From Escherichia coli (GTDB lineage Bacteria; Pseudomonadota; Gammaproteobacteria; Enterobacterales; Enterobacteriaceae), in NCBI RefSeq assembly GCF_001677475.2, contig NZ_CP015229.1: a stretch of 64,000 nt of DNA, one strand, 5' to 3'. Positions 9,686-63,834 of the stretch are shown here, in pieces. The position numbers and the translations under genes were made by a program. Each line of letters starts with the position of its first letter. Position 1 is the stretch's first letter. Below the pieces are notes generated by a model. It was not told the DNA's origin. It saw only the letters and a program-made list of their open reading frames with translations, and did no database searches.

Positions 9686-10897
<1,212 letters not shown>

Positions 10898-10993
10898 CCA
10901 GGATAATTAGCGAATATCTCAATGCCTGGGGCGTGGCGAGGTGCAAGAGTGTGTATTACGTTTAAATCACATTATCTTGCAAAGGGATTGGTT

Positions 10994-11416
10994 ATGAACT
11001 CACTACGTTATTTTGATTTTGGAGCTGCCCGCCCCGTTTTGTTATTAATTGCCCGTATCGCCGTGGTCTTAATTTTCATTATTTTTGGTTTTCCCAAAAT
11101 GATGGGCTTTGACGGTACGGTCCAATATATGGCCTCGCTGGGCGCGCCGATGCCGATGCTGGCAGCGATTATTGCGGTAGTTATGGAAGTGCCCGCCGCG
11201 ATATTAATCGTGCTTGGCTTTTTCACCCGTCCGCTGGCGGTGCTGTTTATTTTCTACACGCTGGGTACGGCGGTGATTGGTCACCATTACTGGGATATGA
11301 CCGGCGATGCGGTTGGGCCAAATATGATTAATTTCTGGAAGAATGTCAGTATCGCTGGCGCATTCCTGCTGTTGGCAATTACCGGGCCGGGGGCAATTTC
11401 TCTCGATCGGCGTTAG
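10994..11416 (+). CDS. yphA: DoxX-family inner-membrane protein YphA
   Basis: ORF 10922..11416 trimmed to MNSLRYF... (140 aa); strongly hydrophobic. Confidence 0.75.
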
Positions 11417-11419
11417 GAA

Positions 11420-11456
11420 AGATGCCGGATGCGGCGTGAACGCCTGATCCGGCATT
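11420..11456. repeat. REP element
   Basis: GATGCCGGATGCGGCGTGAACGCCTGATCCGGCAT palindrome between convergent yphA and yphB. Confidence 0.5.
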
Positions 11457-11463
11457 TTATAAA

Positions 11464-12336
11464 TTACAGTAACGCAACCCGCAACGACATCTCTGAAGTT
11501 GTTGATTCCCCTGGTGCAAGCGCAATGAGATCACCCCCTTCCGGGCGATGATGGTCATCCGGCGCATGGCTCATCGGTTCCAGACAGAAGAAATCAAACG
11601 CATATCCTTTATCAAACGCCGGGTCGGAAACAAAGATGAAATAACATGGTGCAGGTGGCGTCGTTTCCATGATGATGGCATAACCCTCCTGCGGCTGCTC
11701 GATGCGGGCCTGACCACTCCATCCGGCAAAGCCATTGTTTACCCACTGGCGCGGCAACGGCGCGAGCTGGTTGAAATCCAGCTCCTGCGGTAGCTGCTCG
11801 CAAAACTCACCCGCCAGCCACTGCTCCTGCTCCCGCCAGTAACCGCTCGCCTGCGCCTGAATCCGCGTTTGTGGTGACAACGGAAAATAAGGATGCCAGC
11901 CGGTACCAAATGGTAGCGTCTCTGCCCCTTGATTGGTGACAGAGAGCGTCACCGTCAGCGTATCTGCCGTTAAATGAAACGCCTGACTTACCCGATAGTG
12001 ATAAACACCGCTGCGATGTTCATACACCAGACACAAGCTATCTTCGCTGCGCGAGACACATTGCCACTGCCCCAGCCAGCCGTCGCCGTGCAGATAGTGC
12101 GCATCCCACTCAACATTCGGTTGCAGTTGATACTCACGCCCCTGCCAGACAAAACGATTGCCGCTCACCCGGTTTGCAAACGGCACCAGCGGAAAACAGG
12201 AGGCATCGGTTGCCACACCGCTTTTTTTACCAGGACGTAAGAGCGGCGTCGTATCACGCCAGAAACCTTCGATGACACCGCCCTGGTCAGAGACATCCAG
12301 CTTTAGCGGTCCGTGAGATAAGGTATAGATGGTCAT
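11464..12336 (-). CDS. yphB: Aldose 1-epimerase-family protein YphB
   Basis: 290-aa ORF recognised as YphB (mutarotase-like). Confidence 0.85.
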   Translation of the reverse strand: MTIYTLSHGPLKLDVSDQGGVIEGFWRDTTPLLRPGKKSGVATDASCFPLVPFANRVSGNRFVWQGREYQLQPNVEWDAHYLHGDGWLGQWQCVSRSEDSLCLVYEHRSGVYHYRVSQAFHLTADTLTVTLSVTNQGAETLPFGTGWHPYFPLSPQTRIQAQASGYWREQEQWLAGEFCEQLPQELDFNQLAPLPRQWVNNGFAGWSGQARIEQPQEGYAIIMETTPPAPCYFIFVSDPAFDKGYAFDFFCLEPMSHAPDDHHRPEGGDLIALAPGESTTSEMSLRVALL

Positions 12337-12347
12337 CCGCTAACTCC

Positions 12348-13409
12348 TTAATCCGGGAAGTTAATCACAACTTTCCCGCATTTGCCGCTCGCCATCAGCG
12401 CATAGGCATCACCTGCCTGTTCCAGCGAGAAGCGATGGGTAATGGCGTTACGCGGCCACAGTTTCCAGTCCGTCAGATCATGGGCGCATTTTTCCATATG
12501 GAACAGACTGGTCACCCAGGAGCCGATAATCCGCCGTTGATGGTGCATCAGATCGGCGCTGACCTCGAACTCCACTTTTCCGGTTTCTCCGATGTAAACC
12601 ACCCGTCCCCAGTCAGCGGTGGATCGCAGTGCCAGCAAGCGACCTGCGGCATTACCAGAACAATCGAGCGCAACATCCGCGCCACCGTGGGTGAGTTCGG
12701 CGATAATCTGCGGCAGACCTTCGGTGGTTGCTAAATAGCCGTGATCCATCACCCCTAACTGTTTTGCCATCGCCAGACGTTCCGGCAGCATATCAACGCC
12801 GATGATCCGTTTTGCACCGCGACCTTTCGCCAGCATCATCGCCATCATGCCGACTGGCCCCAGACCGACCACCAGCACGTTATCACTGCCGGAAACTTCG
12901 CCGCGCAAAATTCCTTCATACGCTGTACCAACGCCGCAACTGATAAACGCACCATCTTCGTAGCTCAGCGCATCCGGCAGGAGGATCAGATCTTTTTCTT
13001 CCGCCAGCAAGTATTCGGCATGACCGCCGTCACGCTGCCAGCCGTAAGCCGCTTTTCCTTCGCCAGTACAAGAAATAGGAAAACCGCGACGGCAGTTCGG
13101 GCAAAAACCACAGCCAGAAATGTGATACACCAGCACGCGGTCGCCCTCTTTAAAATGGCGGCAGCCTTGCCCCATCGCCACAATCTGCCCGCACGGTTCA
13201 TGACCGTTGATAAATCCCTGGTATAACGGTTTATCGGGTGCCGCTGCCGTGGCACGGTGTTGATGATAGATATAGTGGACATCACTTCCGCAAATCCCGG
13301 AGGATTTCATTTTGATCAGTACCTGGTTAATCCCCGGCGTCGGCACCGCAACTTCCCGCAGATCGACGGTCGAATTTCCTGGTAAATAAGCTGCCAGCAT
13401 CGTTTTCAT
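12348..13409 (-). CDS. yphC: Zn-dependent alcohol/polyol dehydrogenase (MDR family) YphC
   Basis: ORF trimmed to MKTMLAAY... (353 aa); GHEPCG zinc motif and GLGPVG NAD motif. Confidence 0.85.
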   Translation of the reverse strand: MKTMLAAYLPGNSTVDLREVAVPTPGINQVLIKMKSSGICGSDVHYIYHQHRATAAAPDKPLYQGFINGHEPCGQIVAMGQGCRHFKEGDRVLVYHISGCGFCPNCRRGFPISCTGEGKAAYGWQRDGGHAEYLLAEEKDLILLPDALSYEDGAFISCGVGTAYEGILRGEVSGSDNVLVVGLGPVGMMAMMLAKGRGAKRIIGVDMLPERLAMAKQLGVMDHGYLATTEGLPQIIAELTHGGADVALDCSGNAAGRLLALRSTADWGRVVYIGETGKVEFEVSADLMHHQRRIIGSWVTSLFHMEKCAHDLTDWKLWPRNAITHRFSLEQAGDAYALMASGKCGKVVINFPD

Positions 13410-13474
13410 AAATCCCTCATTAACAATACGATTAATTTTCATCCCTGCCGCACCCGCGCCAGGGGCGTTAAGGT

Positions 13475-14473
13475 TTAGCGTTTCGCTTTACTGCTACGCT
13501 GGGTCAGCAAGATATTCGCCAGCACCGCCACCACGATGATGACGCCGCGCACCACCTGCTGGAAAAAGGAGTTAATCCCTAGCAGCACCAGACCGTTACC
13601 GATTAGCGTAATCACCAACACACCAAGCAATGTACCAAACAGGGAACCGCGACCGCCGGAAAGTGCCGTACCACCGACCACGACCGCGGCGATGACGTCA
13701 AACTCCAGACCGTTTGCGGCACCTGCGTTACCGGAACCGAGGCGCGCCGCCAACAAAATGCCGGTCACCGCTGCTAATAATCCCGAAAGGGTAAAAATAA
13801 GAATGCGTACCCGACGAACGTTAATACCGCACAACTGCGCCGCCGTGGCATTACCGCCAACAGCAAAAACCGAGCGCCCGAAGGCGGTTTTGCGGCTAAT
13901 GAACACAAACAGCGCAAATAACACCATCATGATCAGCGCGGATACCGGCACACCGAGAAATTGTCCCCCCAGCCAGTCCAGCACTTCGTTTTCGTCAATC
14001 GGCACTGGCAAGGCGTTCGTCATAAACAGCCCCATTCCGCGCAGGGCGCTCCATAAACCCAGCGTGGCAACAAAACTTGGCACGTTAAACACGCCGCGCA
14101 GCACCCCGGCGAGCGTTCCCATCAGCGCGCCTAACAGCAACACCAGCAGACAAGCAATCGCCAGCGGAACTTCAAATTGCAGCAAAAATGCCAGGCACAC
14201 CGAGACAAAAGCCACCATCGGTCCAACGCTGACATCAATTTCACCGGAGATAATAATCAGCGTCATCGCCCAGGCGGCGATCCCGATGGTGGCGGCATCG
14301 CGCAGCACGTTCATCTGGTTATTCAATGAGATAAAGCCAGGCGCGTTCAGAGAGAAGACCAGATAAAGAATGGCAATCACCACCAGCAAACCGATCTCAT
14401 TAATATGGCGACTGACAAATTGTTTGAGCGAGACGCTCTTGCCCTGCGGCAATGGTAATGACGAAGCAGACAT
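13475..14473 (-). CDS. yphD: Sugar ABC transporter permease YphD
   Basis: 332-aa polytopic ORF, RbsC-like. Confidence 0.88.
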   Translation of the reverse strand: MSASSLPLPQGKSVSLKQFVSRHINEIGLLVVIAILYLVFSLNAPGFISLNNQMNVLRDAATIGIAAWAMTLIIISGEIDVSVGPMVAFVSVCLAFLLQFEVPLAIACLLVLLLGALMGTLAGVLRGVFNVPSFVATLGLWSALRGMGLFMTNALPVPIDENEVLDWLGGQFLGVPVSALIMMVLFALFVFISRKTAFGRSVFAVGGNATAAQLCGINVRRVRILIFTLSGLLAAVTGILLAARLGSGNAGAANGLEFDVIAAVVVGGTALSGGRGSLFGTLLGVLVITLIGNGLVLLGINSFFQQVVRGVIIVVAVLANILLTQRSSKAKR

Positions 14474-14497
14474 CTTCAGGTTCCTCGGTAAAATTCA

Positions 14498-16009
14498 TCA
14501 GTGCACAGACAGAATGGCGGACATCAGCTCATCCACATTGACCGGCGAGTGAAACTCCTGCGAGAACGTACCGTGCTGTAATAACAGGATGCGGTCACAC
14601 ACCAGCGGCAACTCCTCCACTTCACTGGAGATAAACACCACGCTTTTTCCTTCGGCAGCCAGCTCGCGGACAATACGATAAATCTGCTGTTTGGCTTCGA
14701 TATCGACGCCACGCGTTGGCTCGTCGAGCAACAAAATCTGGCTGGCGGCATAGACCCAACGACCGATCACCACTTTTTGCTGATTGCCGCCAGAAAGCGT
14801 GCCGATGGGCGTTTCGCTACTGGCGGCCTTGACCGTCATCCGCTGCATCACCTCTTCGGTCAGGCGGCGGATGGTGGACCATTGCAGCACGCCGTTGGCG
14901 CTGATTTTTTGCCGATTGGTCAGCACTGTATTTTCGTCAACGCCCAGCCAGGGAATGATCCCCGCTTCTTTGCGGTTTTCTGGCGTATAGCCAATGCCGC
15001 GTTTCAGCATGTCGCCGTAATCGGGGTGCGTGATTTTCTCGCCGTTGATAACAATTTCGCCCTGTTCATACGCTTCCAGCCCAACTATGGCTTTCAACAA
15101 TTCACTGCGCCCTGCCCCCAGCAGGCCAGCAATGCCGAGCACTTCGCCACGACGGAGCGTAAAGCTGATATCCTCCAGCTTGGGCTTATGGCGTAATGCA
15201 CGGACTTCCAGCACGGCCTGATCGACAATTTCCTGAGGGGAAACCGGCGCAATATCAACGTGATCGCGCCCGAGCATCAGCGACACAATATGATGCGTGG
15301 AGGTGTTTTCGAGCATCACATCGCCCGCCACCTGACCATCGCGCATAACGGTGGCACAGGAGGCAATGCGGCGAATTTCTTCCATCCGGTGGCTGACATA
15401 AATCACCGCCACGCCCAGTGCCGACATCTTTTTCACCGCACTGATCACCAGTTCAACTTCTGCACTGGCAAGCGAGCTGGTGGGTTCATCAAGAATGACC
15501 ACGCGCGGCTCGCCCTTCATCACCCGTGCAATTTCCACCAGTTGCTTTTGCGCCGGGCTTAGCGTTGAAACAAGTTGTTCAGGACTAACGTCAACGCCCA
15601 GCGCCTGTAAGCAACGTTGGGCATCCTGCGCCATTTGCAGGTAATCAATCATGCCGTTGCGGCGAGGCCACCGACCGAGGCAGAGGTTTTCCGCCACCGT
15701 TAGTCCCTCCACCAGACTTAACTCCTGATAAACCGCACGAACCCCCAGTTCAGCGGCACGGCGAGTCAACGTAGCTTCGTCACCTTCCAGTCGCGTCTCG
15801 CCAATCCAGATATCACCGCTGTCCGGACGTTCGCTACCGGTAAGCATTCGAATGAGGGTCGATTTGCCCGCGCCGTTTTTACCTAACAGCGCGCGAACTT
15901 CGCCTTTATTGAGCGTAAAGTTAACGTTATCCAGCGCAACGACGCCGGGATAACGCTTATTTCCTGCCACCATTTTTGCTACCGGGACTGCCTCTGTTGC
16001 CGTGAACAT
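14498..16009 (-). CDS. yphE: Sugar ABC transporter ATP-binding protein YphE (duplicated NBD)
   Basis: 503 aa; Walker A GKNGAGKST and signature LSGGNQQK. Confidence 0.9.
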   Translation of the reverse strand: MFTATEAVPVAKMVAGNKRYPGVVALDNVNFTLNKGEVRALLGKNGAGKSTLIRMLTGSERPDSGDIWIGETRLEGDEATLTRRAAELGVRAVYQELSLVEGLTVAENLCLGRWPRRNGMIDYLQMAQDAQRCLQALGVDVSPEQLVSTLSPAQKQLVEIARVMKGEPRVVILDEPTSSLASAEVELVISAVKKMSALGVAVIYVSHRMEEIRRIASCATVMRDGQVAGDVMLENTSTHHIVSLMLGRDHVDIAPVSPQEIVDQAVLEVRALRHKPKLEDISFTLRRGEVLGIAGLLGAGRSELLKAIVGLEAYEQGEIVINGEKITHPDYGDMLKRGIGYTPENRKEAGIIPWLGVDENTVLTNRQKISANGVLQWSTIRRLTEEVMQRMTVKAASSETPIGTLSGGNQQKVVIGRWVYAASQILLLDEPTRGVDIEAKQQIYRIVRELAAEGKSVVFISSEVEELPLVCDRILLLQHGTFSQEFHSPVNVDELMSAILSVH

Positions 16010-16031
16010 AGGAACCTCTGCGAATCAGCTA

Positions 16032-17015
16032 TTAGGGCAGACCATCAACGTGCGTTGCCAGCCACTGTTTACCGTCTTCCGTTTTGGTATAGAGATCGAT
16101 AGGCACCTGAATCACTTTGTCACCGTCGGCTTGTTTATTGATAACCTTCAATGTTTGCGCAAAAACAGCATTGCCCATTTTCTTACCGGAAATATCCACC
16201 ACCGCTTTCAGCACCTGGTTATTTTCCAGTTCCTGAGCAATTTCAGTCGTCATATCCGAACCGAAAACAGCAATTTTTCCGGCCTGATTTTGATTGCGTA
16301 CCGCTTTTACCGCGCCGAGTGTCGCACCGCCCGATTCCCCCATAATGGCGTTGAGATCCGGCGTGGAGATAATCAGTTTTTCACCAACGGAAATCGCTTT
16401 ATCTAAAACAGTCCCTTCCTGATTAGCGACAATTTGCGCGCCGGGAACCCGGGCTTTTAATACTTCTTCAAACCCTTTACGTCGTTGCACACAAACTTCA
16501 AAGGCTTCGCAATTGATGACGGCAATTTTCGGCTGGTCAATTTTGTTGGCAATAAAATAATCGGCGGCAGCGTTACCCAGTTTTTTACCAAATTCCAGCG
16601 GATCGCCGACCAGATACGCCGAGACATATTTATCGACACCCTTTTGATTAATACAGGTGTTGTAGCAAATCACCGGAATACCCGCTTCACTGGCGCGACG
16701 AACGGTACGGCTACTGCCATTTTCAGACACTGCCGATAAAATAATGGCATTGACATTACGCGCCACAAGGGTATCAACAAAGGTACTTTCTTTCGAAATA
16801 TCGCCCTGGGCGTTAGTTTCTATTAACTGAACCTGTACTGAAGAATCTTTTGCTGCATCCTGAACACCCTGACGCACACCGGCATAATATCCCTGAGTAT
16901 CAAGGTATATTGCACCAATGGTCATTTCTTTATCCGCAGCCCTGGCAAATAGTGCGCTACCTAATAGCGTAGCCATTAATAATAGATTACGGGTTGTTCT
17001 CATTTTTTTAGGCAT
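16032..17015 (-). CDS. yphF: Periplasmic sugar-binding protein YphF
   Basis: 327 aa with N-terminal signal peptide; RbsB-like fold. Confidence 0.88.
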   Translation of the reverse strand: MPKKMRTTRNLLLMATLLGSALFARAADKEMTIGAIYLDTQGYYAGVRQGVQDAAKDSSVQVQLIETNAQGDISKESTFVDTLVARNVNAIILSAVSENGSSRTVRRASEAGIPVICYNTCINQKGVDKYVSAYLVGDPLEFGKKLGNAAADYFIANKIDQPKIAVINCEAFEVCVQRRKGFEEVLKARVPGAQIVANQEGTVLDKAISVGEKLIISTPDLNAIMGESGGATLGAVKAVRNQNQAGKIAVFGSDMTTEIAQELENNQVLKAVVDISGKKMGNAVFAQTLKVINKQADGDKVIQVPIDLYTKTEDGKQWLATHVDGLP

Positions 17016-17111
17016 AGTGTCTCCTGTAGGGTTTTTATTAACAACGGCTTATTCTAATTATTTTGTGATGAGCGGCAGCGCGTGCCGCTCAAATATTACA
17101 GTTAATAGGGT

Positions 17112-20100
17112 TTAGTGAACGGAGTTAAAAATAAAAGGCATCACGGTGGTGAATAATGCCGCTTTCGGCCAGGCCGGATTAATCGCCGTCAATTCAGCGC
17201 GAACAGATTCATATTGCGCAATCTCCCCTAATCCCGCTGCCGCCAGCATCGCCACCATCAGGCATTTTTCTTTATGCTGCTGTTGTAAATCGCCATACAG
17301 CGACAATAAATCAGGTTGTGAAACAGCGAAGAAATCCGCTTCGATACTGGTTTTCGCCATCTCTTGCGCCCACTGTTTCATTTCACTAAACAGTTGCTGT
17401 GCAGTTTGCTTTTCACCCAGCAGTCGCAGCGCCATCCCTTGCCAGAAGAGATAATCAACTGGCTGATCGTTGTAATAACTGTGGATATTGATGGTGCGAT
17501 CGCCGGTCGCCGCCAGGCGTAAACAACGCGTCGCTTCAGTTTCATCGCCCTGCGCGTTGGCGCATATTGCCAGCCAGAACCAGATGTCGTTATCAGTTTG
17601 CCCCGGTAAACGGCCTTCGCTTAAATTCTCCGGATAATGCAGCGCGGCATGAAGCAGTTCACTGGCCTGCTGCGGCTCTCTGGCATCAAGATGCTGCCAG
17701 GCGCGTAATAACTGGTTGAGGATAAACTGGCTGGTGACCTTCCCTTCCCCACCTTCCCACGGGTGGAATTTGCGCGTGGCGAGAATGTCCGCCGCTTTGT
17801 TTGCCTGACCGGTGAGATGCCACAAATTGAGCAGTTCTGCGGTCATGTCGTCGCGTTTCAGCGCAATTTCCAGATTATTTTCCAGACGCGCCAGTCGTTT
17901 CTCCGGTGTGGCTCCGCTTAACTTATCCAGCAAATCCCGTTCGAAAAGCAGACGTGCATCCTGCGGCGCAAGCTGATAAGCATTATCAAGATAACGCGCG
18001 GCCAGCTCATAATCGTGTTGCTTATTCCACGCATGGATCGCTAATCCGCGCCAGCCGTCGGCAAACTCCGGCGACATCTCTACGCAACGTTGCCATAAAG
18101 TAATGGCTTTGTTGTAGCTGCGCTTGTTGTAGTAGAAGCAGGCCAGTAAATGACGGGCAAACCAGCACTCTTCAATACTCTCCAGCGCCGCCACTTCTTC
18201 CAGCGTATTCGGGAAACGGACAAACTGTGGGAAGACATCAATGGCTTTTGTGACCAGTTCGCCGCGTTCAGCTTTCGGCAGCAAGCTGGCTTGCAAGTAA
18301 AGCGGCAGCGTGCGCTGGCAGTCCAGTGCGTTCAGCATCTCTGCCGCCAGGGTGGGCATTCCCCAGTTAATCAGTTGCCCGGCGGTCATCAGGGCGTTAA
18401 CGTCGCGTCCCTGACACAGACCGCGCCACTGCGTGAGAGCTGATTCGCTACGACCATCGAACCAGTTCAGCCTCCACAGAGTGGCGTTCAGCGGATAATC
18501 GCGCAGCAGTTTCTCGCGCTGCAAACGCGCGTTGTCCTGACGACCACTTAACACCAGCAGCAGATTATGCAGGCAAAGCACTTCCTGATTGGTTGGGCAG
18601 GCGCGAAGACTTTGTTGGCAAAAATCCAGACCAGCATCGAAGTGACCATTACGCGCCGCCAGTCGTGCCAGACCATAATAGCCGCCTGCTTTACTATTGC
18701 CGCTCCAGACCGCACGCCAGAAATCCTCTTCGGCTTGTTGATATTGTCCCTGACGTTCGTAAGCACTGGCGCGAATCAAACTCGCCTGTCCGCACTGCGG
18801 ATTTTTGTTCAGCGCATGTGCGCGTTTCAGCGCCTGAGTGGCATACGCCACCGCTTGCGGGAAATCTGCGCGGTTATATTCCAGCATCGCCAGCGCCAGA
18901 TTACAGCGATAATCCAGCGGATCCAGCGCCACGCCGCGCAGGTAGTAATCGAACGGTGAACGGCTGGCGTGATGATATTGCTCCAGATGCTGACCGATAA
19001 ACCAGGCTTCATCTGTACTGGTAATGTCTTGTGCTGCCAGTGGCGCTTTGGCGACGTCCGGCAACGGCAACTCTTGCGGCTGATGTTCCTGATAACTCAG
19101 TACAATATTGCCATCCGCATCGGAAAGTTCGATGGTCATTCTGTCCGGATCAATACCGTGCAATACCCCCTGGATGGCGGTCGCTGGCGTCAGGGCAACG
19201 GCATCATCAAGTAACGCTTCGCGCTTGCCTATTTCACGGATCGCCAGTCGGTATCCGTTCAACGGGGAGATGGCATACAGCCCCCACTCAATTCCCCGCT
19301 CGCTACGCTGTAATTTAATTACCGCATCGCGGGAGGCGTTTTGCACCATGCCTAAAGAATGGTAAGGCAGGAAATACTGCTCAAAACCCTTCTCTTCGTA
19401 AGCATCAAGCCAGGTAAAATCGGGCTGGTTATCGGCAAAAATGCCGGTCATCAGCTCGATATACGGACCGTTATTGTCGGTCAGACTCTTATCCCACGCC
19501 TGGCCAAATTCACTGTGTCCCCAGCTCCACTGTTTTTTACCCGGCGCAATGTGGTGGTTGGCAACGTGTAATAAACCGCCATCTTCATCGTGACACCACG
19601 CGCCAACAAAATCGTACTGCGATTTTTCTGCCATATATGAGGTAGGAACAGGCACGTTTTTATAACGCGAAATGTCCACTCCAGCGGAGTAGTCCACTTT
19701 GTAGTAAGTGCCGGTGGCGATGGGGAAAGCGGAGACGGCCCGTTTGCCGTGATCAAAGACCGCCGTTACATCCGGTGGGAACACGCTTTGATGTCCTTCA
19801 CCCCCTTTCACTGCCGGGTTGGCCCACCACAAGAAATGACGCGGCGTGGCGTTGCCGTTATAGACGCGGCTGGCAATTTCCAGTGCCGCCCGGTCAGGGC
19901 GCAAGGTGAAACCTGTCATCACCTGTAAACCGTGCATCGGCTCCGTTTCGCCGACCCACACGGTTTGTGCGCCGTCTTCATGGGCTTCGAGGGTGAAATC
20001 GACGGGCATAAAGGTGGTCGGGCGATGGTGTTGCGGCCAGTTAAACTCAATCCCGCCGGAGATCCACGGCCCCAGCAGCCCCACCAGCGCCGGTTTAATG

Positions 20101-20393
20101 ACTTCATTATGATAGACAAAATCGCGCTGTTTCACTTTATCCCACGCGCGATGCACCCGACCGCCCAGCTCCGGCAGGATCATCACTTTGATGTAGTCGT
20201 TTTCCAGCCACACCGCCTGCCAGGATTTCAGGGTTTTCTGCTCGCTCAGCGTATCGGTCACGCCGTAGGGATAAACCGCGCCGGACGATCCCTGATAAAC
20301 GCGATTTTCCAGGAACATAGGATGTATATCCTGCGGCCCGGTTTCATAGGTCGGGATCTCAACGCGCTCTTGCCACACTTTTACTGGAGTCAT
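17112..20393 (-). CDS. yphG: Large TPR-repeat protein YphG, function unknown
   Basis: ORF 17112..20486 (1124 aa) trimmed to MTPVKVWQ... (1093 aa); multiple TPR-like repeats in the C-terminal two-thirds. Confidence 0.8.
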   Translation of the reverse strand: MTPVKVWQERVEIPTYETGPQDIHPMFLENRVYQGSSGAVYPYGVTDTLSEQKTLKSWQAVWLENDYIKVMILPELGGRVHRAWDKVKQRDFVYHNEVIKPALVGLLGPWISGGIEFNWPQHHRPTTFMPVDFTLEAHEDGAQTVWVGETEPMHGLQVMTGFTLRPDRAALEIASRVYNGNATPRHFLWWANPAVKGGEGHQSVFPPDVTAVFDHGKRAVSAFPIATGTYYKVDYSAGVDISRYKNVPVPTSYMAEKSQYDFVGAWCHDEDGGLLHVANHHIAPGKKQWSWGHSEFGQAWDKSLTDNNGPYIELMTGIFADNQPDFTWLDAYEEKGFEQYFLPYHSLGMVQNASRDAVIKLQRSERGIEWGLYAISPLNGYRLAIREIGKREALLDDAVALTPATAIQGVLHGIDPDRMTIELSDADGNIVLSYQEHQPQELPLPDVAKAPLAAQDITSTDEAWFIGQHLEQYHHASRSPFDYYLRGVALDPLDYRCNLALAMLEYNRADFPQAVAYATQALKRAHALNKNPQCGQASLIRASAYERQGQYQQAEEDFWRAVWSGNSKAGGYYGLARLAARNGHFDAGLDFCQQSLRACPTNQEVLCLHNLLLVLSGRQDNARLQREKLLRDYPLNATLWRLNWFDGRSESALTQWRGLCQGRDVNALMTAGQLINWGMPTLAAEMLNALDCQRTLPLYLQASLLPKAERGELVTKAIDVFPQFVRFPNTLEEVAALESIEECWFARHLLACFYYNKRSYNKAITLWQRCVEMSPEFADGWRGLAIHAWNKQHDYELAARYLDNAYQLAPQDARLLFERDLLDKLSGATPEKRLARLENNLEIALKRDDMTAELLNLWHLTGQANKAADILATRKFHPWEGGEGKVTSQFILNQLLRAWQHLDAREPQQASELLHAALHYPENLSEGRLPGQTDNDIWFWLAICANAQGDETEATRCLRLAATGDRTINIHSYYNDQPVDYLFWQGMALRLLGEKQTAQQLFSEMKQWAQEMAKTSIEADFFAVSQPDLLSLYGDLQQQHKEKCLMVAMLAAAGLGEIAQYESVRAELTAINPAWPKAALFTTVMPFIFNSVH

Positions 20394-20510
20394 GGTGCCC
20401 TCAATATTAACAAGACATACTGAATTAAAAGATTTGTGGCAGTGTATTGAACAATCTGGCAATGTTTTCGCGGAATAATCACGCAATTAACTAAACAAGG
20501 TTTAGTAAAG

Positions 20511-21704
20511 ATGAGAGCCTGCATTAACAATCAACAGATCCGCCACCATAACAAATGCGTGATTCTGGAACTGCTGTACCGGCAAAAGCGCGCCAATAAA
20601 TCAACGCTGGCCCGGCTGGCGCAAATTTCGATTCCGGCGGTCAGTAATATTTTGCAGGAGCTGGAAAACGAAAAACGGGTGGTGAATATCGATGATGAAA
20701 GCCAGACGCGCGGGCATAGTAGCGGTACATGGCTGATTGCGCCGGAAGGTGACTGGACGCTGTGTCTGAACGTGACGCCCACCAGTATTGAGTGTCAGGT
20801 TGCTAATGCTTGTTTAAGTCCGAAAGGTGAATTTGAGTATTTACAGATTGATGCACCGACGCCGCAGGCGCTGCTGTCCGAAATCGAAAAATGCTGGCAT
20901 CGCCACCGTAAATTGTGGCCGGGTCGTACCATCAATCTGGCGCTGGCAATCCACGGTCAGGTTGATCCAGTGACCGGTGTGTCGCAAACCATGCCGCAAG
21001 CGCCGTGGACAACGCCGGTTGAGGTAAAGTATCTGCTGGAAGAGAAGCTCGGCATTCGGGTGATGGTCGATAATGACTGCGTGATGCTGGCGCTGGCGGA
21101 GAAATGGCAAAATAATTCGCAGGGCCGGGATTTCTGCGTGATCAACGTTGATTACGGCATTGGCTCGTCGTTCGTGATTAACGAGCAAATTTATCGCGGC
21201 AGTTTGTATGGTAGCGGACAGATTGGTCACACCATCGTTAACCCGGATGGCGTCGTCTGCGACTGCGGACGTTATGGCTGCCTGGAAACCGTCGCCTCGT
21301 TAAGCGCATTAAAAAAACAGGCGCGGGTATGGCTAAAATCACAACCGGTTAATACTCAGCTTGATCCTGAAAAACTGACTACCGCGCAGTTAATCGCTGC
21401 CTGGCAGAGTGGAGAACCGTGGATCACCAGTTGGGTTGATCGCTCTGCCAACGCCATTGGTTTGAGTCTGTATAACTTCCTCAACATCCTCAATATTAAT
21501 CAGATTTGGTTGTACGGTCGCAGTTGTGCCTTTGGTGAGCACTGGCTTAATACCATTATTCGCCAGACGGGATTTAACCCGTTCGACCGCGACGAAGGAC
21601 CGAGCGTGAAAGCAACGCAAATTGGCTTCGGGCAATTAAGCCGCGCACAACAGGTGCTGGGGATTGGCTATTTGTATGTTGAGACGCAGTTACGACAGAT
21701 TTGA
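20511..21704 (+). CDS. yphH: ROK/NagC-family transcriptional regulator YphH
   Basis: 397 aa; N-terminal HTH plus ROK sugar-kinase-like domain with CxCGxxGC zinc motif; divergent from yphG. Confidence 0.85.
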   Translation: MRACINNQQIRHHNKCVILELLYRQKRANKSTLARLAQISIPAVSNILQELENEKRVVNIDDESQTRGHSSGTWLIAPEGDWTLCLNVTPTSIECQVANACLSPKGEFEYLQIDAPTPQALLSEIEKCWHRHRKLWPGRTINLALAIHGQVDPVTGVSQTMPQAPWTTPVEVKYLLEEKLGIRVMVDNDCVMLALAEKWQNNSQGRDFCVINVDYGIGSSFVINEQIYRGSLYGSGQIGHTIVNPDGVVCDCGRYGCLETVASLSALKKQARVWLKSQPVNTQLDPEKLTTAQLIAAWQSGEPWITSWVDRSANAIGLSLYNFLNILNINQIWLYGRSCAFGEHWLNTIIRQTGFNPFDRDEGPSVKATQIGFGQLSRAQQVLGIGYLYVETQLRQI

Positions 21705-21720
21705 TGGCGCGATAACGTAG

Positions 21721-21749
21721 AAAGGCTTCCCGAAGGAAGCCTTTTTTCA
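21721..21749 (+). terminator. Rho-independent terminator (yphH; shared 3' region with glyA)
   Basis: AAAGGCTTCC-CGAA-GGAAGCCTTTTTTC hairpin plus T-tract. Confidence 0.65.
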
Positions 21750-21767
21750 ACAGATTAACCGTTTCGC

Positions 21768-23021
21768 TTATGCGTAAACCGGGTAACGTGCGCAGATGTC
21801 GAGAACTTTACCTTTGATACGCTCGATAACGGCTTCATCATTGATGCTGTCCAGCACGTCACACATCCAGCCAGCCAGTTCTTTCGCTTCTGCTTCTTTG
21901 AAGCCGCGACGCGTAATCGCCGGAGTACCCACGCGAATACCGGAGGTCACAAACGGGCTCTTCGGATCGTTCGGTACGCTGTTTTTGTTGACGGTGATGT
22001 TAGCACGGCCCAGAGCGGCGTCTGCTTCTTTACCGGTCAGGTTTTTATCAACCAGATCAACCAGGAACAGGTGGTTATCAGTGCCGCCGGAAACCACTTT
22101 GTAGCCGCGTTCCAGGAACACTTCTACCATCGCTTTAGCGTTTTTAGCGACCTGCTGCTGGTAAGTTTTGAACTCAGGCTCCATCGCTTCTTTCAGAGCA
22201 ACCGCTTTACCGGCGATTACGTGCATCAAAGGACCGCCCTGACCACCAGGGAAAACGGCAGAGTTCAGTTTTTTGTACAGCTCTTCGCTACCACCTTTCG
22301 CCAGGATCAGACCGCCGCGCGGACCCGCCAGGGTTTTGTGAGTGGTGGTAGTAACAACGTGAGCATGAGGAACTGGGTTCGGGTAGACGCCAGCAGCAAC
22401 CAGGCCCGCAACGTGCGCCATATCAACGAACAGGTAAGCACCGATGCTGTCAGCGATTTCACGCATTTTCGCCCAGTCCACCACGCCGGAATATGCAGAG
22501 AAGCCACCGATAATCATTTTCGGTTTGTGTTCTTTGGCTTGTTTTTCCAGATCGGCGTAGTCGATATGACCGGTAGCATCGATACCGTAAGGAACGATGT
22601 TGTACAGTTTACCGGAGAAGTTAACCGGAGAACCGTGAGTCAGGTGACCGCCATGCGCCAGGTTCATACCCAGAACGGTATCACCTGGTTCCAGCAGCGC
22701 GGTGTAGACCGCAAAGTTAGCCTGGGAGCCGGAGTGCGGCTGGACGTTAGCGTAGTCAGCGCCGAACAGTTCTTTCGCACGATCGATCGCCAGTTGTTCA
22801 ACGATATCAACATACTCGCAACCGCCGTAGTAGCGTTTGCCCGGATAACCTTCAGCATATTTGTTGGTCAGCTGAGAACCCTGCGCCTGCATTACGCGCG
22901 GGCTGGTGTAGTTTTCGGAGGCGATCAGTTCGATGTGCTCTTCCTGACGTACTTTTTCCTGCTCCATAGCCTGCCACAGTTCGGCATCATAATCGGCAAT
23001 GTTCATTTCACGCTTTAACAT
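21768..23021 (-). CDS. glyA: Serine hydroxymethyltransferase
   Basis: ORF trimmed to [12 protein letters not shown]... (417 aa); PLP motif [16 protein letters not shown]. Confidence 0.95.
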
Positions 23022-23139
23022 CCGCATCTCCTGACTCAGCTAACAATAAAATTTTTGGCCTTTATAGGCGGTCCTGTTGGACAACGGCGAACAGTATAAC
23101 CGAATCATTGTGCGATAACAGGTCTTGACAAAGGAATTT

Positions 23140-23155
23140 ACGCAAACGATTACCT
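23140..23155. promoter_or_regulatory. PurR-box-like operator in glyA upstream region
   Basis: ACGCAAACGATTACCT resembles the PurR box ACGCAAACGTTTTCNT. Confidence 0.4.
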
Positions 23156-23299
23156 TCAGGCTGCGCAAGGCTTTGGAGAATAAAGAGCTTGCAACCGGAA
23201 ACGGATTTCTTTTCAGGTTTGTGATGCAAATTTTTCACTTCATCACATTCTTTCTGAAAAACACCAAAGAACCATTTACATTGCAGGGCGATTTTTTAT

Positions 23300-23332
23300 A
23301 AGATGCATTTGAGATACATCAATTAAGATGCA
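23300..23332. promoter_or_regulatory. Putative NsrR operator at the hmp promoter
   Basis: AT-rich imperfect inverted repeat AAGATGCATTT...AAGATGCA overlapping the hmp -10 region. Confidence 0.4.
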
Positions 23333-23348
23333 AAAAAAGGAAGACCAT

Positions 23349-24539
23349 ATGCTTGACGCTCAAACCATCGCTACAGTAAAAGCCACCATCCCTTTACTGG
23401 TGGAAACGGGGCCAAAGTTAACCGCCCATTTCTACGACCGTATGTTTACTCATAACCCAGAACTCAAAGAAATTTTTAACATGAGTAACCAGCGTAATGG
23501 CGATCAACGTGAAGCCCTGTTTAACGCCATTGCCGCCTACGCCAGTAATATTGAAAACCTGCCTGCGCTGCTGCCAGCCGTAGAAAAAATCGCTCAGAAG
23601 CACACCAGCTTCCAGATCAAACCGGAACAGTACAACATCGTCGGTGAACACCTGTTGGCGACCCTGGACGAAATGTTCAGCCCGGGGCAGGAAGTGCTGG
23701 ACGCGTGGGGTAAAGCCTATGGCGTACTGGCTAATGTATTTATCAATCGCGAGGCGGAAATCTATAACGAAAACGCCAGCAAAGCCGGTGGCTGGGAAGG
23801 TACTCGCGATTTCCGCATTGTGGCTAAAACACCGCGCAGCGCGCTTATCACCAGCTTCGAACTGGAGCCGGTCGACGGTGGCGCAGTGGCAGAATACCGT
23901 CCGGGGCAATATCTCGGCGTCTGGCTGAAGCCGGAAGGTTTCCCGCATCAGGAAATTCGTCAGTACTCTTTAACTCGCAAACCGGATGGCAAAGGCTATC
24001 GTATTGCGGTGAAACGCGAAGAGGGTGGGCAGGTATCCAACTGGCTGCACAATCACGCCAATGTTGGCGATGTCGTGAAACTGGTCGCTCCGGCAGGTGA
24101 TTTCTTTATGGCTGTGGCGGATGACACGCCGGTGACGTTAATCTCTGCTGGTGTCGGCCAGACGCCAATGCTGGCAATGCTCGACACACTGGCAAAAGCA
24201 GGCCACACAGCACAAGTGAACTGGTTCCATGCGGCAGAAAATGGCGATGTTCACGCCTTTGCCGATGAAGTTAAGGAACTGGGGCAGTCACTGCCGCGCT
24301 TTACCGCGCACACCTGGTATCGCCAGCCGAGCGAAGCCGATCGCGCTAAAGGTCAGTTTGATAGCGAAGGTCTGATGGATTTGAGCAAACTGGAAGGTAC
24401 GTTCAGCGATCCGACAATGCAGTTCTATCTCTGCGGCCCGGTTGGCTTCATGCAGTTTGCCGCGAAACAATTAGTGGACCTGGGCGTGAAACAGGAAAAC
24501 ATTCATTACGAATGCTTTGGCCCGCATAAGGTGCTGTGA
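23349..24539 (+). CDS. hmp: Flavohaemoglobin (NO dioxygenase)
   Basis: ORF trimmed to [10 protein letters not shown]... (396 aa); globin domain plus FAD/NAD reductase domain. Confidence 0.93.
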
Positions 24540-24544
24540 TTTGA

Positions 24545-24572
24545 TGTTGCCGGATGGAAACATCCGGCAACC
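24545..24572. terminator. Bidirectional hairpin terminator between convergent hmp and glnB
   Basis: GTTGCCGGATG-GAAA-CATCCGGCAAC perfect inverted repeat. Confidence 0.6.
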
Positions 24573-24583
24573 CTTGACGCGGT

Positions 24584-24958
<375 letters not shown>

Positions 24959-28669: not shown

Positions 28670-28853
28670 CAACAAAGCCGGGAATTACCCGGCTTTGTTA
28701 TGGAATAAGGCGGTGCCTAACTCGACGTTTCGCCCGATGGTTGATATAGCTACGCTGATATCAGAAGTTGGACGGCAGGCACCTTGTTGTGCGTCATTCG
28801 AATTTTATGTAGCACGTCCCGAAGGGGCTGACATAAGTCGGTGAATGAGCCAC
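28670..28853 (-). ncRNA. glmY: GlmY small RNA
   Basis: Minus-strand read AGUGGCUCAUUCACCGACUUAUGUCAGCCCCUUCGGGACGUGC... ending in terminator hairpin GCCGGGUAAUUCCCGGC plus U-tract; recognised as GlmY. Confidence 0.8.
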
Positions 28854-28865
28854 TGCTTACTATTA

Positions 28866-38052: not shown

Positions 38053-38128
38053 CGTTGGAATCGTGTGCTGCACAAAATTAAAGTTGTAAAGTGAAAACCC
38101 CCGTTCCTTACCAGTTCGGGGGTTTTAC
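38053..38128 (+). ncRNA. ohsC: Candidate OhsC antisense sRNA (antitoxin of shoB)
   Basis: Plus-strand TTGGAATCGTGTGCTGCAC (38055-38073) matches plus-strand 37806-37824 in the shoB 5' leader at 18 of 19 positions, so a plus-strand transcript would base-pair with the minus-strand shoB mRNA; CATAAT -10-like hexamer at 38041-38046; hairpin at 38094-38126. Boundaries inferred. Confidence 0.45.
38094..38126. terminator. Bidirectional terminator hairpin (acpS operon end and candidate ohsC end)
   Basis: AAAACCCCCG-loop-CGGGGGTTTT with A-tract and T-tract flanks. Confidence 0.6.
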
Positions 38129-38151
38129 TTTATAAAGAGAACGGTATTTTT

Positions 38152-40134: not shown

Positions 40135-41747
<1,613 letters not shown>

Positions 41748-41945
41748 TCAGCACACGAAACAGACCTGATATACATGGCTCTGCTAACTGCTTCGCTGCA
41801 GTTTCAGTTTAGCGGTATATGGGGACCAACGCTGTTTCGTGTGCCGTGGCAACCTGGAGGTGCCAACCTTAAACTTCGGGGGAATATTCTATACACAACG
41901 ACGGGGGATGTCGTTAGCCACGGGAGATTTATCTCATAAATAATT

Positions 41946-42978: not shown

Positions 42979-44778
<1,800 letters not shown>

Positions 44779-44975
44779 AAAGTATGATTATTGTGCCTTA
44801 ATGCCCGGTTAACCAGGCTTTTAGAAGTCGCTGTTCTGAGCTTAACGTCTGTATTAATAGAAACGCCGCATTCTACACTACAACATTGAGGCGAGGAAAT
44901 GTTCATACCGTATGGATTGTGGTATCTGGAAACGTCCTCGCATTTGTTATGCAAAATGCAACAAAGCCAGTGAAA

Positions 44976-45455
44976 TCACTGGCTCGCGTCTTCCGAAGAT
45001 GTTTCAAATCGCACAAGGCCAGGCGGCAATGCCACGCTTAAGATGATCGGTTGCCATTCAGACCGGGCAGCAAACTTTCGAGAGCAGCCACGTGCAATCA
45101 GGAATCCACCAACGCCACCGAGAATCGCACCGCATAATGCTGCAATATCTGAAGCAAAGAGTAGCTGAAATAGTGAAGCGATGAGGAATAGTCCCACCAA
45201 CGGCGACATATAAACCAGTAATGCGGAGCTAAGCAGGCTGCCTTCGGCGATTCCTAATTCTACTTTTTGCCCCGGCACTAACGGCTCATCACAGGGTACG
45301 ACAATGGTATGCGTGGTTTGCGGGCCAAGTTTATTCAACACGCGGCTACCGCAACCGGCGCGTGAAGCGCAGCTGCTGCATGAGGCTTTAACATCACAAC
45401 TGACCAGCGCCTGCCCGTTTTGCCAGGAGACGACGGTAGCCCACTCTTTGATCAT
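44976..45455 (-). CDS. rseC: SoxR-reducing system protein RseC
   Basis: 159 aa. Confidence 0.9.
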   Translation of the reverse strand: MIKEWATVVSWQNGQALVSCDVKASCSSCASRAGCGSRVLNKLGPQTTHTIVVPCDEPLVPGQKVELGIAEGSLLSSALLVYMSPLVGLFLIASLFQLLFASDIAALCGAILGGVGGFLIARGCSRKFAARSEWQPIILSVALPPGLVRFETSSEDASQ

Positions 45456-46408
45456 TGCGCTGCCCCGAACTTAATATTCTCGGCAATGCGTTTCGCCGTT
45501 TGCGGCGGCAGTTCACCGACAATGGTGATTTCGGCGTTATCACGTACGCTTGTACTGACGGTTCTGCGTCCGGTGCGCAACATCTGATCGGTGCTCGATG
45601 GCGTAGCGCGGTTAACGTTTACCGAGAAGCTGAATAATCCGTCGGAATAGAGACGTGATTCGATAGGCATGTTGTCCATCGTCGGTAGCGGACGTCGACT
45701 ACTGGAAACTTCGCTAAAACCCTGTGGCAACCAGGTTGGCGTCCAGCTGAATTTAGCTTTTTCACCTACAGGAACAGAAAGCAACGGCGGCAAATTTGCC
45801 TTCGCCAGCGTCTGCATACTGCTGCTGATATCCTGATTGACGTTAAAAGCAATCACGCGAAATTGTTCCAGCGTTTCACCATCGCGATCAAGGAGATCAA
45901 CCCTCATCGGTAATTTCGATTCAGTGTCCATCCACACGATGTAGCTGTAGCGTGTACCATCTCGGGCAACCACGCGAATGACTTCGCAAAGACGATCAGC
46001 AATACGCGTGCGCCCGACGGAGATAAAGTCGTAGTAAGGAGAAAGGCGTTTGAAATCGGTATAGATGAGCGATGGCAGAGAATCAACAATGTAATCGCCA
46101 TTAAGCGTGAACGGTTCAAGTCCCGGTTCAAAATAGCTGATTTCATTGCCGCGCTGTACCACTTCCCGGCGCGGGCCATCCATTTGCAACAATTGTGCAA
46201 GAGGACGGTTATCGAGGCGTGCATGTCGATAACGCAGAGACTCAACACCCTGTTTATTGATGCTGATGAATGACAGCTCGTAATTCAGTGACTGACTGGC
46301 CAGGTTCATCTGCTGTAATAACGCCCCGGACGCGGGAGTGGCCGAGGCGTTAGCAGAGAATAACAGGCTACCTGTCACTAATGACATGGCAAACCAAAGT
46401 TGCTTCAT
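45452..46408 (-). CDS. rseB: Sigma-E regulatory protein RseB
   Basis: 318 aa with signal peptide. Confidence 0.92.
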   Translation of the reverse strand: MKQLWFAMSLVTGSLLFSANASATPASGALLQQMNLASQSLNYELSFISINKQGVESLRYRHARLDNRPLAQLLQMDGPRREVVQRGNEISYFEPGLEPFTLNGDYIVDSLPSLIYTDFKRLSPYYDFISVGRTRIADRLCEVIRVVARDGTRYSYIVWMDTESKLPMRVDLLDRDGETLEQFRVIAFNVNQDISSSMQTLAKANLPPLLSVPVGEKAKFSWTPTWLPQGFSEVSSSRRPLPTMDNMPIESRLYSDGLFSFSVNVNRATPSSTDQMLRTGRRTVSTSVRDNAEITIVGELPPQTAKRIAENIKFGAAQ

Positions 46409-47776: not shown

Positions 47777-48064
47777 GTAACGCATCTGTTTTTGTTTGTC
47801 ATGCTGTAGACGGATCATTATCTATCATTATAAGTCTACAGAATCTGAACATCGCATTATCTGTGTAGAAATGCCCATTTAACTGCCTGAAGAGTAACCC
47901 AACGGCCTTTTTATTTCACCACCTAATCCTCCACCAGCCAGTAACTTCTCTTTTTCTCGCCGCCCTGAGTCAGCGTGTTTAGCCACTGTAACAAATATTA
48001 AAATAGCAGGTGTTTAATCGCACAACATGATGCTATGCTGACCAAACCGTGTTTAGTAAATTAA

Positions 48065-63714: not shown

Positions 63715-63834
63715 ATGCCTGGCAGTTCCCTACTCTCGCATGGGGAGACCCCACACTACCATCGGCGCTACGGCGTTTCACTTCTGAGTTCGGCATGGGG
63801 TCAGGTGGGACCACCGCGCTACGGCCGCCAGGCA
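63715..63834 (-). rRNA. rrfG: 5S ribosomal RNA
   Basis: Minus-strand read UGCCUGGCGGCCGUAGCGCGGUGGUCCCACCUGACCCCAUGCCGAACUCAGAAGUGAAACGCCGUAGCGCCGAUGGUAGUGUGGGGUCUCCCCAUGCGAGAGUAGGGAACUGCCAGGCAU is the 120-nt E. coli 5S sequence; operon identity (rrnG) inferred from kgtP adjacency. Confidence 0.9.

Follow-up and report, generated by a model that had tools for sequence, protein, structure and literature searches.

The yph locus of Escherichia coli is a fusion of two modules, one of them marked by the widespread mutarotase-fold protein YphG

The yph locus of Escherichia coli (yphA to yphH) occupies positions 10994-21704 of a 64,000-nucleotide stretch of contig NZ_CP015229.1, here called the window, with hcaD upstream and glyA downstream. 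An earlier note on this DNA had described the locus as one coherent eight-gene unit. Sugar uptake and conversion genes accompanied by a divergent ROK-family regulator are indeed what is found; the single unit, on the other hand, does not hold. The locus is a composite in which yphH, yphG and, ancestrally, yphA (module A) are fused to yphFEDCB (cassette B), since each of the two modules occurs separately in other genomes. As to what the composite does, we give about an even chance to a working model in which yphH and yphGFEDCB, controlled by YphH and with yphA loosely linked, would serve the uptake and conversion of a free, galacto-configured sugar of monosaccharide size.

The two modules can be told apart by gene order. 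In Aeromonas, Klebsiella oxytoca, Serratia and Limnobaculum, a ROK gene stands divergent from the series YphG, MFS sugar porter and aldose epimerase. In K. pasteurii, E. albertii, Enterobacter and Budvicia the order is that of E. coli, with YphG followed by a binding protein, an ATPase, a permease, a Zn-dependent alcohol dehydrogenase (ZnADH) and an epimerase. One Serratia quinivorans strain has both transporters in a single operon (YphG-MFS-binding protein-ATPase-permease-ZnADH-epimerase). Cassette B stands by itself in Aquitalea, where binding protein, ATPase, permease, ZnADH and epimerase are 68, 62, 72, 83 and 55% identical to YphF, YphE, YphD, YphC and YphB, respectively, with no YphG or ROK gene nearby. 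A related cassette in Agrobacterium, Rhizobium and Shinella accompanies a GntR regulator and runs binding protein-ATPase-permease-epimerase-GMC oxidoreductase-enolase-superfamily dehydratase, followed by an SDR gene in Agrobacterium and Shinella. The epimerases of the MFS-type yphG clusters are only 32% identical to YphB, against 42-55% for the cassette epimerases. YphG is the signature gene of module A and is conserved across phyla.

The yphA gene belongs with module A, though it is linked only loosely in the window. Its orthologues (74-86% identity) adjoin the ROK gene in Klebsiella, Enterobacter and Cedecea with either transporter variant, whereas the window copy (10994-11416, plus strand) lies at the far end of the locus, convergent with yphB and past a GC-rich palindrome, GCCGGAT...ATCCGGC (GCCGGATGCGGCGTGAACGCCTGATCCGGC). 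This palindrome, read from the sequence between the two genes at 11424-11453, resembles E. coli repetitive extragenic palindromic elements and is presumably one of them; it is a likely transcription end point for both yphA and yphB. In Cedecea neteri, Enterobacter sp. Ag1 and Enterobacter sp. BIGb0383 (loci L015, L021 and L009), the ROK and DoxX genes are followed, on the regulator strand, by a different, second CUT2 ABC system, in which the binding protein shares only about 23% identity with YphF. Recruitment of an ABC importer by the YphH/YphG module has thus taken place more than once.

All eight open reading frames are present and intact in the window, and the families to which the earlier note had assigned them were confirmed by Pfam, NCBIfam and PDB comparisons; RefSeq annotates the same yph genes in matching E. 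coli genomes. On the module A side, yphH (20511-21704, plus strand) encodes a ROK-family transcriptional regulator of 397 residues and is divergent from yphG (17112-20393, minus strand), the product of which is a cytoplasmic protein of 1093 residues with a DUF5107 domain and TPR repeats. The remaining genes of the minus strand are yphF (16032-17015; periplasmic CUT2 sugar-binding protein, 327 residues), yphE (14498-16009; ABC ATPase with two fused nucleotide-binding domains, 503 residues), yphD (13475-14473; CUT2-type ABC permease, BPD_transp_2, 332 residues), yphC (12348-13442; Zn-dependent, MDR-family NAD(P) dehydrogenase, 364 residues) and yphB (11464-12336; aldose 1-epimerase or mutarotase, 290 residues), the final gene of cassette B. 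YphA itself is a DoxX-family inner-membrane protein of 140 residues, annotated as DoxX by RefSeq as well and with PF07681 recorded on its orthologues. Long intact reading frames, gaps of 11-96 bp among the six co-directional genes and conservation across species place the locus well beyond chance. None of the eight proteins reaches an NCBIfam equivalog cut-off, and the literature that we searched in full text contains no substrate or named ligand, no functional study and no treatment of the yph genes as a unit, so that the description of the locus as lacking an assigned substrate proved accurate.

A region covering the locus (10000-23000) was matched by megablast in 5425 of 5426 complete E. 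coli genomes, with coverage of at least 80% of the query in 5369. The top identity to these genomes was only 97.5% for the yph region and 98.9% for glyA-hmp (21768-24600). On these values the window derives from an Escherichia- or Shigella-like lineage, possibly a cryptic Escherichia clade, to which none of the complete genomes compared is close. GC content is 0.45-0.46 over yphF and the yphG-yphF junction (16000-17500) versus 0.51-0.56 elsewhere in the locus; apart from this dip, to 0.45 over yphF, the GC profile of the locus carries no clear signature of foreign DNA. The yphG gene is split or truncated in some strains, as in E. coli SCPM-O-B-8794 (841 and 244 residues) and in the proteins P0002, P0030 and P0049, and it is also split in Phytobacter massiliensis (923 and 234 residues). 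We regard these cases as sporadic gene loss within an otherwise core locus. They could also be taken, along with the lack of a reported phenotype or substrate in the searched literature, as signs that the Escherichia locus is a cryptic or decaying remnant without a current physiological role. We give this explanation hardly any credence: the eight frames are intact in the window, the locus is nearly universal in the species as described above, and YphC is 99.5% identical across Escherichia, 90-93% in Enterobacter, Klebsiella and Budvicia loci and 83% in Aquitalea. In the comparisons outside Escherichia YphG and YphB are 55-84% identical, and the high conservation of YphC suggests either a strong constraint on the dehydrogenase or recent transfer. 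YphF protein has moreover been detected, with a rise of 3 to 4.6-fold on a poor carbon source, levoglucosan, relative to fructose, alongside XylF, MalE, MglA and YtfQ (PMC8753852), the sole expression result in the literature searched. We ascribe this rise to general relief of catabolite repression and do not count it in favour of levoglucosan as the substrate.

Concerning cassette B, YphF, YphE and YphD have the binding protein, double nucleotide-binding-domain ATPase and permease of a CUT2 (monosaccharide) ABC importer. YphF carries PF13407 and PF00532 and matches 75 sugar-binding proteins in the PDB at E<=1e-5, the top match being the Klebsiella binding protein 5HSG; its orthologues in Serratia, Aquitalea and Rhizobiales are 55-70% identical. 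YphE aligns end to end with AraG, XylG and RbsA, with AraG as the top NCBIfam match (455 bits, cut-off 689), and YphE orthologues contain PF00005 twice. YphD gives sub-threshold matches to RbsC (227 vs 398 bits) and AraH, its orthologues contain PF02653, and the Aquitalea one is 72% identical. None of the named transporters (ara, xyl, rbs, mgl, als, ytf, lsr) could be recognized in YphFED; AlsB, for example, scores 64 of 335 bits and MglB 60 of 420. The combination of a Peripla_BP_4 protein, a fused ATPase and a BPD_transp_2 permease is shared with the CUT2 operons of E. coli (araFGH, rbsACB, xylFGH, mglBAC, alsBAC and ytfQRT-yjfF), as is the presence, along with the importer, of a repressor of its own and a helper of the mutarotase or pyranase type. 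Unlike those operons, the yph operon has no equivalog-level match and no linked kinase or isomerase, and it is led by the 1093-residue YphG.

On the basis of fold and catalytic His/His/Glu residues, YphB is a predicted canonical mutarotase. Its match to the solved structure of b2544 from E. coli K-12 (PDB 3NRE) has an E value of 1e-201, and among 18 members of the family the residues H83 (motif LHG), H148 (WHPYF) and E253 (CLEP) show conservation of 95% or more. YphB is 55% identical to the Aquitalea epimerase and 42-47% to those of the Rhizobiales cassettes.

YphC belongs to the Zn-dependent MDR dehydrogenases, with a GroES-like ADH_N and an ADH_zinc_N domain (PF08240 and PF00107 on its orthologues), and aligns over its full length with Tdh, IolM and other MDR models. 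All NCBIfam scores are sub-threshold (Tdh 171 vs 380 bits, IolM 168 vs 450, GatD 106 vs 550, IdnD 88 vs 469), and the PDB matches are alcohol dehydrogenase, xylitol dehydrogenase and Tdh at E 1e-31 to 1e-37. Information on the reaction comes from the neighbours of the cassette elsewhere. Next to the Aquitalea cassette, in opposite orientation, lie genes for a DgoD equivalog (649 bits, cut-off 311) and a protein of the KDPGal-aldolase subfamily (285 bits, cut-off 207), together with an SDR and a lactonase-type protein of the SMP-30/gluconolactonase (SGL) family; judged by these family matches, the neighbours would make up the gene set of an oxidative route of the De Ley-Doudoroff type. The dehydratase in the Agrobacterium cassette, the sole Rhizobiales locus scored, is also a DgoD equivalog (729 bits), and by their position the ZnADH found in Escherichia and Aquitalea and the GMC oxidoreductase found in Rhizobiales are analogous. 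Taking into account that a mutarotase lies between importer and oxidoreductase and that galactonate-pathway genes adjoin the cassette elsewhere, we infer that YphC is a candidate aldose oxidizer. The location of the Aquitalea and Rhizobiales cassettes beside a DgoD equivalog is reminiscent of De Ley-Doudoroff clusters (galactose 1-dehydrogenase, lactonase, DgoD, DgoK and DgoA), and the yph order of mutarotase, then dehydrogenase, fits anomer-specific oxidation of an aldose. The window locus differs from such clusters in having no dehydratase, lactonase, kinase or aldolase, and YphC, as an MDR Zn-enzyme, differs from the better-known bacterial galactose dehydrogenases.

The earlier note had spoken of a sugar or polyol and had called YphC a polyol dehydrogenase. 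Uptake and conversion of a sugar are borne out; the polyol part finds no specific support, the orthologous cassette beside galactonate-pathway genes pointing instead to an oxidized aldose. Put as a full alternative, a polyol or inositol would be imported, YphC would make a ketose from it, and YphG and YphB would then convert the product. The family matches of YphC do include xylitol dehydrogenase and IolM, a scyllo-inosose 3-dehydrogenase, and YphF is weakly similar to rhizopine- and allose-binding proteins. In gammaproteobacterial loci YphC is found only in the ABC-type variants, always together with the importer, as if it fed a more reduced form of the substrate into the YphG/YphB route, and an MDR enzyme resembling YphC is found, along with a UxaB-like polyol/hexuronate reductase, in some of the YphG loci of Ruminococcaceae. 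The matches are nevertheless far under their cut-offs, as the IolM scores given above illustrate, no version of the cassette lacks a mutarotase, a sign that a free aldose is handled, and an orthologous cassette beside a galactonate dehydratase, a KDPGal aldolase and a lactonase-type gene is a context of aldose oxidation and not of polyol-to-ketose conversion. We therefore consider the polyol alternative distinctly unlikely.

We now turn to YphG. The earlier note had recorded a 1093-residue TPR protein, which is correct in terms of the TPR solenoid and incomplete in two respects: YphG also contains a mutarotase-fold domain, and it is the gene that characterizes module A across phyla. Pfam identifies DUF5107 at residues 39-327 (E 2.6e-55) and, in addition, TPR repeats. 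A confident AlphaFold2 model, computed from an alignment of 60 sequences (predicted local distance difference test, pLDDT, 94.3; predicted template modelling score, pTM, 0.92), begins with a beta sandwich (about residues 1-345), continues with a second beta domain (357-435) and is helical throughout at 460-1092, the TPR solenoid. The N-terminal DUF5107 domain has the galactose-mutarotase-like beta-sandwich fold, and the Pfam assignment there is DUF5107 and not PF01263. No similarity to a catalytic glycoside hydrolase (GH) or polysaccharide lyase domain was found in YphG. Compared with GalM, YeaD, YihR and YphB, YphG shows no detectable profile similarity and has about 750 extra residues, made up of the second beta domain and a TPR solenoid of about 630 residues. 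A DUF5107 and TPR protein is present in the PDB as a structural genomics entry (5CD6, BDI_1685); it is only 21% identical to YphG and has no published function.

The family is large. Among 1.84 billion representative proteins we found 1154 clusters of YphG homologues at E<=1e-30, the clusters being defined at 50% identity. The matches listed are mostly about 1100 residues long and align across most of the query, at identities down to about 27%. The family extends over Proteobacteria, Bacteroidota, Firmicutes, Actinobacteria and Spirochaetes, and the full-length homologues seen in 80 genome loci include those of Bacteroidota, Lachnospiraceae, Ruminococcaceae, Paenibacillus, Bacillus, Bifidobacterium and Spirochaetes. 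Invariant across phyla are H123 (motif GGIEFNWPQHHRP), H215 and E313 in the beta sandwich; in the solenoid W563, R782 and E880 (motif FHPWEGGEG) are invariant. By sequence position, the spacing of H123, H215 and E313 is roughly compatible with that of H83, H148 and E253 in YphB, N192 being a possible alternative for the second His position. The N termini of the homologues begin at a conserved motif and carry no signal peptide. In a few distant homologues (P0258, 1417 residues; P0199, 1399 residues) the N terminus carries a signal or anchor segment and the C terminus extra domains, and some members of the family are thus probably extracytoplasmic; the extra domain of P0199 resembles, by eye, an endonuclease/exonuclease/phosphatase domain.

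These features also bear on the idea that YphG is not an enzyme and instead serves as a sensor or scaffold, with a mutarotase-like ligand pocket and a TPR interaction surface, that modulates the ROK or AraC regulator or the transporter. Contacts between proteins are the usual task of TPR solenoids, and the sensor domain of MalT is TPR-like. The divergent regulator is the most conserved neighbour of YphG, a ROK gene adjoining it in 12 of 15 gammaproteobacterial loci and an AraC gene in 29 of 65 others, and hhalign detects no relationship of YphG to catalytic mutarotases. Against this, ROK and AraC regulators carry sugar-binding domains of their own, yphG leads the structural operon, and homologues that are secreted and fused to a carbohydrate-binding module (CBM) exist. 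In addition, many polar residues of the beta domain (H, E, D, N, R and W) are invariant across phyla at identities of 27-58%, as in an active site. A sensor or scaffold role is, in our judgement, very unlikely.

The surroundings of YphG were examined by calling and clustering open reading frames in 80 loci, 65 of them non-gammaproteobacterial and 15 gammaproteobacterial. Within five genes of YphG, the 65 non-gammaproteobacterial loci hold an AraC-type regulator in 43 cases (adjacent in 29), an XylE-like MFS sugar porter or CUT2 ABC system in 38, a GH2 (GH2_20) or GH35 glycosidase in 31 (adjacent in 20) and a mutarotase-fold gene, GalM-type or of another family, in 13. A CUT2 ABC system or XylE-like porter is also found within five genes in 12 of the 15 gammaproteobacterial loci. 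The GH2 cluster matches PDB 8U01, an entry of subfamily GH2_20, at E 1e-144, the other glycosidase cluster being GH35; PMC12243196 reports GH2_20 to be a beta-galactosidase with activity on xyloglucan or rhamnogalacturonan II. Genes resembling GH36, GH97, GH95 and GH31 and SusC/D were assigned by eye in the same neighbourhoods, together with sulfatases in marine Flavobacteriia. A Lachnospiraceae binding protein adjoining YphG is closest to AraF, the L-arabinose/D-galactose-binding protein (E 1e-23). Three mutarotase-fold families (YphB-type, GalM-type and cluster c54) adjoin YphG in different phyla, and the recruitment of different mutarotases beside it therefore suggests that YphG makes or uses a free reducing sugar in one particular anomeric form. 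The galactosidases around YphG and the galactonate-pathway genes around the cassette are two independent lines of evidence, which together point to a galacto-configured sugar; the CUT2 and XylE-like transporters near YphG argue for monosaccharide size. Two further leads gave nothing. A supposed GalK-MFS-YphG operon in Prevotella was rejected, as the candidate gene, c60, encodes a membrane protein and not a galactokinase, and a PDB search with the conserved Rhizobiales SDR returned generic SDR entries only.

The abundance of glycosidases next to YphG raises the alternative that YphG is itself a new cytoplasmic glycoside hydrolase, lyase or phosphorylase. The imported compound would then be a small galactoside, for instance a short disaccharide, galactosyl-glycerol or a methyl or aryl galactoside; its cleavage would fall to YphG, and the anomer set free would be processed by the mutarotase. 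Mutarotase-glycosidase pairings are known in LacZ with GalM and in YihQ with YihR. The arrangement of lacZ-galM and of yihQ-yihR (the sulfoquinovose cluster), in which a mutarotase-fold gene lies beside enzymes that release or consume an anomer, is matched in non-gammaproteobacterial YphG loci with their beta- and alpha-galactosidases, and not in the yph locus of the window, where no glycosidase can be recognized. The 20 of 65 loci in which YphG adjoins a GH2_20 or GH35 gene, the glycan-degradation clusters with SusC/D, sulfatases and further glycosidase-like genes, the homologues with signal peptides or a CBM9-like fusion, and the minimal YphG-porter-epimerase operon with no other catabolic enzyme would all suit such an enzyme. 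On the other hand, the linked transporters are of monosaccharide classes (CUT2 and XylE-like), and no mutarotase fold is known to act as the catalytic domain of a hydrolase. This alternative seems unlikely to us.

Our working model, that of a free galacto-configured monosaccharide, can be formulated as follows. Both modules would handle a sugar of the D-galactose, D-fucose or L-arabinose type. YphH would act as a ROK repressor, probably on the dyad ACTAAAC-N3-GTTTAGT and a second intergenic block, and would be released by the sugar or a derivative of it. The YphFED importer would bring the sugar in. YphG, with its aldose-1-epimerase-fold domain capped by the TPR solenoid, would carry out the family-defining step on the imported reducing sugar, probably one involving ring opening: a conversion of anomer or ring form, or an isomerization. 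YphB would supply the anomer needed by the following enzyme, and YphC, using Zn and NAD(P), would oxidize the sugar, most likely at C1, to an aldonolactone or aldonate (D-galactonate or similar), which in E. coli could be finished by unlinked genes such as dgo. In a more far-reaching form, which we put forward tentatively and would lean against, YphG represents a new and widespread class of cytoplasmic sugar-converting enzymes and E. coli possesses, in addition to the Leloir pathway, a latent oxidative route that leads from aldose through aldonate to Dgo. The unrecognized step of YphG could then be a ring-form- or anomer-specific conversion, an isomerization or the cleavage of a small galactoside.

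Several points weigh against the working model and are gathered here. As scored from sequence, all substrate-level family matches of the Yph proteins fall under their cut-offs. The window locus contains no lactonase, dehydratase, kinase or aldolase, the link to dgo being drawn by analogy with Aquitalea and Rhizobiales. The Aquitalea cluster and most Rhizobiales clusters have two oxidoreductases each (a ZnADH or GMC enzyme plus an SDR), and the YphC step may be other than oxidation at C1. As galK mutants of E. coli fail to grow on galactose, plain D-galactose would hardly serve as inducer and substrate at once. An AraF-like specificity for YphF was rejected, as YphF is only 22% identical to the Lachnospiraceae protein mentioned above and not orthologous to it. 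In the case of YphG, hhalign comparison of its N-terminal profile with the GalM-type and YphB-type profiles gave probabilities of only 0.6% and 1.1%, and H123, H215 and E313 are no more than possible counterparts of the mutarotase catalytic triad. Finally, the C terminus of P0258 is a CBM9-like domain (Pfam E 4.5e-8), which suits a glycan-active enzyme better than a converter of monosaccharides.

In terms of regulation, YphH is predicted to be a ROK transcriptional repressor. An N-terminal helix-turn-helix-like segment (STLARLAQISIPAVSNIL) and a Zn motif, H-x9-CDCGRYGC (GHTIVNPDGVVCDCGRYGC), were read from the translation, in which the kinase-type motif DxGxT was not seen, and its orthologues carry PF00480. 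YphH is not an orthologue of NagC (110 vs 650 bits) or Mlc (108 vs 530 bits) by NCBIfam. It resembles both in having an N-terminal helix-turn-helix, a ROK domain with a Zn-binding Cys motif and a position divergent from its presumed target operon. Previous work lists YphH as the third, uncharacterized ROK repressor of E. coli, with a linker lacking the conserved GR motif and a small branch of its own (PMC4288165).

We aligned the 117-bp region between yphG and yphH across 16 species, in which YphG identity to that of the window goes down to about 54%. The dyad ACTAAAC-N3-GTTTAGT at 20490-20506, which overlaps the Shine-Dalgarno sequence of yphH and is the sole match without mismatch in the window, is conserved as an inverted repeat, with 77.7% of cells complementary versus 15-33% when the partner columns are slid. 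Covariation among the 16 species was not significant (44 of 500 shuffles reached the observed value). An RNA hairpin at the yphH ribosome-binding site was set aside for this reason, the dyad being kept without significant covariation, and a protein-binding DNA dyad was preferred. We propose the dyad as the best candidate for a YphH operator, which would imply autoregulation. It appears unlike the AT-rich operators of NagC and Mlc.

Further conserved elements surround the dyad. A block GCGTGA (TCACGC on the plus strand) with flanking ATT at 20479-20487 is invariant in 16 of 16 species and is a candidate regulatory element; a CRP site was not adopted here, as by eye only one half-site resembles TGTGA. 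A hexamer resembling a -10 element, TAnACT (TACACT in the window), lies at 20441-20446 on the minus strand, with invariant or near-invariant alignment columns A86, A88, C89 and T90, and is a putative promoter element of yphG; a generic promoter scan made no call at this hexamer. Just upstream of the yphG ribosome-binding site, the block TTCAGTATGTCTTGTTAATATTGAGGG (yphG orientation; 20398-20424, minus strand) is conserved in the 16 species as an imperfect 7-9-7 dyad and would be a candidate second operator.

Within yphGFEDCB, the short intergenic gaps and the absence of strong terminators among the six co-directional genes in our scan are compatible with a single, putative transcript. A terminator-like hairpin with a T-run in the final codons of yphG (17137-17160, minus strand; a weak match in the consensus scan, with 8 pairs of which 3 are G-C) might bring about some attenuation from yphG to yphF. 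A copy of the dyad with three mismatches, AGTTAATAGGGTTTAGT, is found at 17100-17116, by the stop codon of yphG and its junction with yphF; five such matches occur in the window, within the expectation from shuffled sequence, and this one may be due to chance. A match with one mismatch, ACCAAACCGTGTTTAGT, is located at 48041-48057, about 20-35 bp upstream of nadB, and overlaps TGTTTA...TAAACA repeats, which we take to be the NadR box. Owing to this position it is probably unrelated to YphH and was not treated as one of its sites.

Rfam found no RNA family in the yph locus. Its gathering-score matches in the rest of the window are the GlmY small RNA (28707-28854), OhsC RNA (38054-38131), the rncO leader (41663-41877), AsrC, antisense of rseC (44660-45491), and, at the window edge, a 5S rRNA gene (63717-63832).

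Even in the best-studied bacterium, eight neighbouring genes of the core genome are still without a function. The analysis narrows this orphan module to a galacto-configured aldose as the probable ligand, YphC as a candidate aldose oxidizer, a 17-bp dyad as a candidate YphH operator and, as the part that truly lacks an explanation, YphG. Taken together, the eight genes form a variant of a well-known type of sugar operon, and if the locus proves to be another monosaccharide operon of ordinary chemistry the gain would be modest. The undescribed biology that the earlier note had placed in this region most likely sits in YphG, and it is the YphG family that makes the interesting unknown. Many glycan degraders of the gut and the sea encode YphG-like proteins next to beta-galactosidases and sugar porters. 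An activity, if found, would annotate well over 1000 protein clusters, and might fill a gap in models of how galactose or plant glycans are used and of cross-feeding in the gut.

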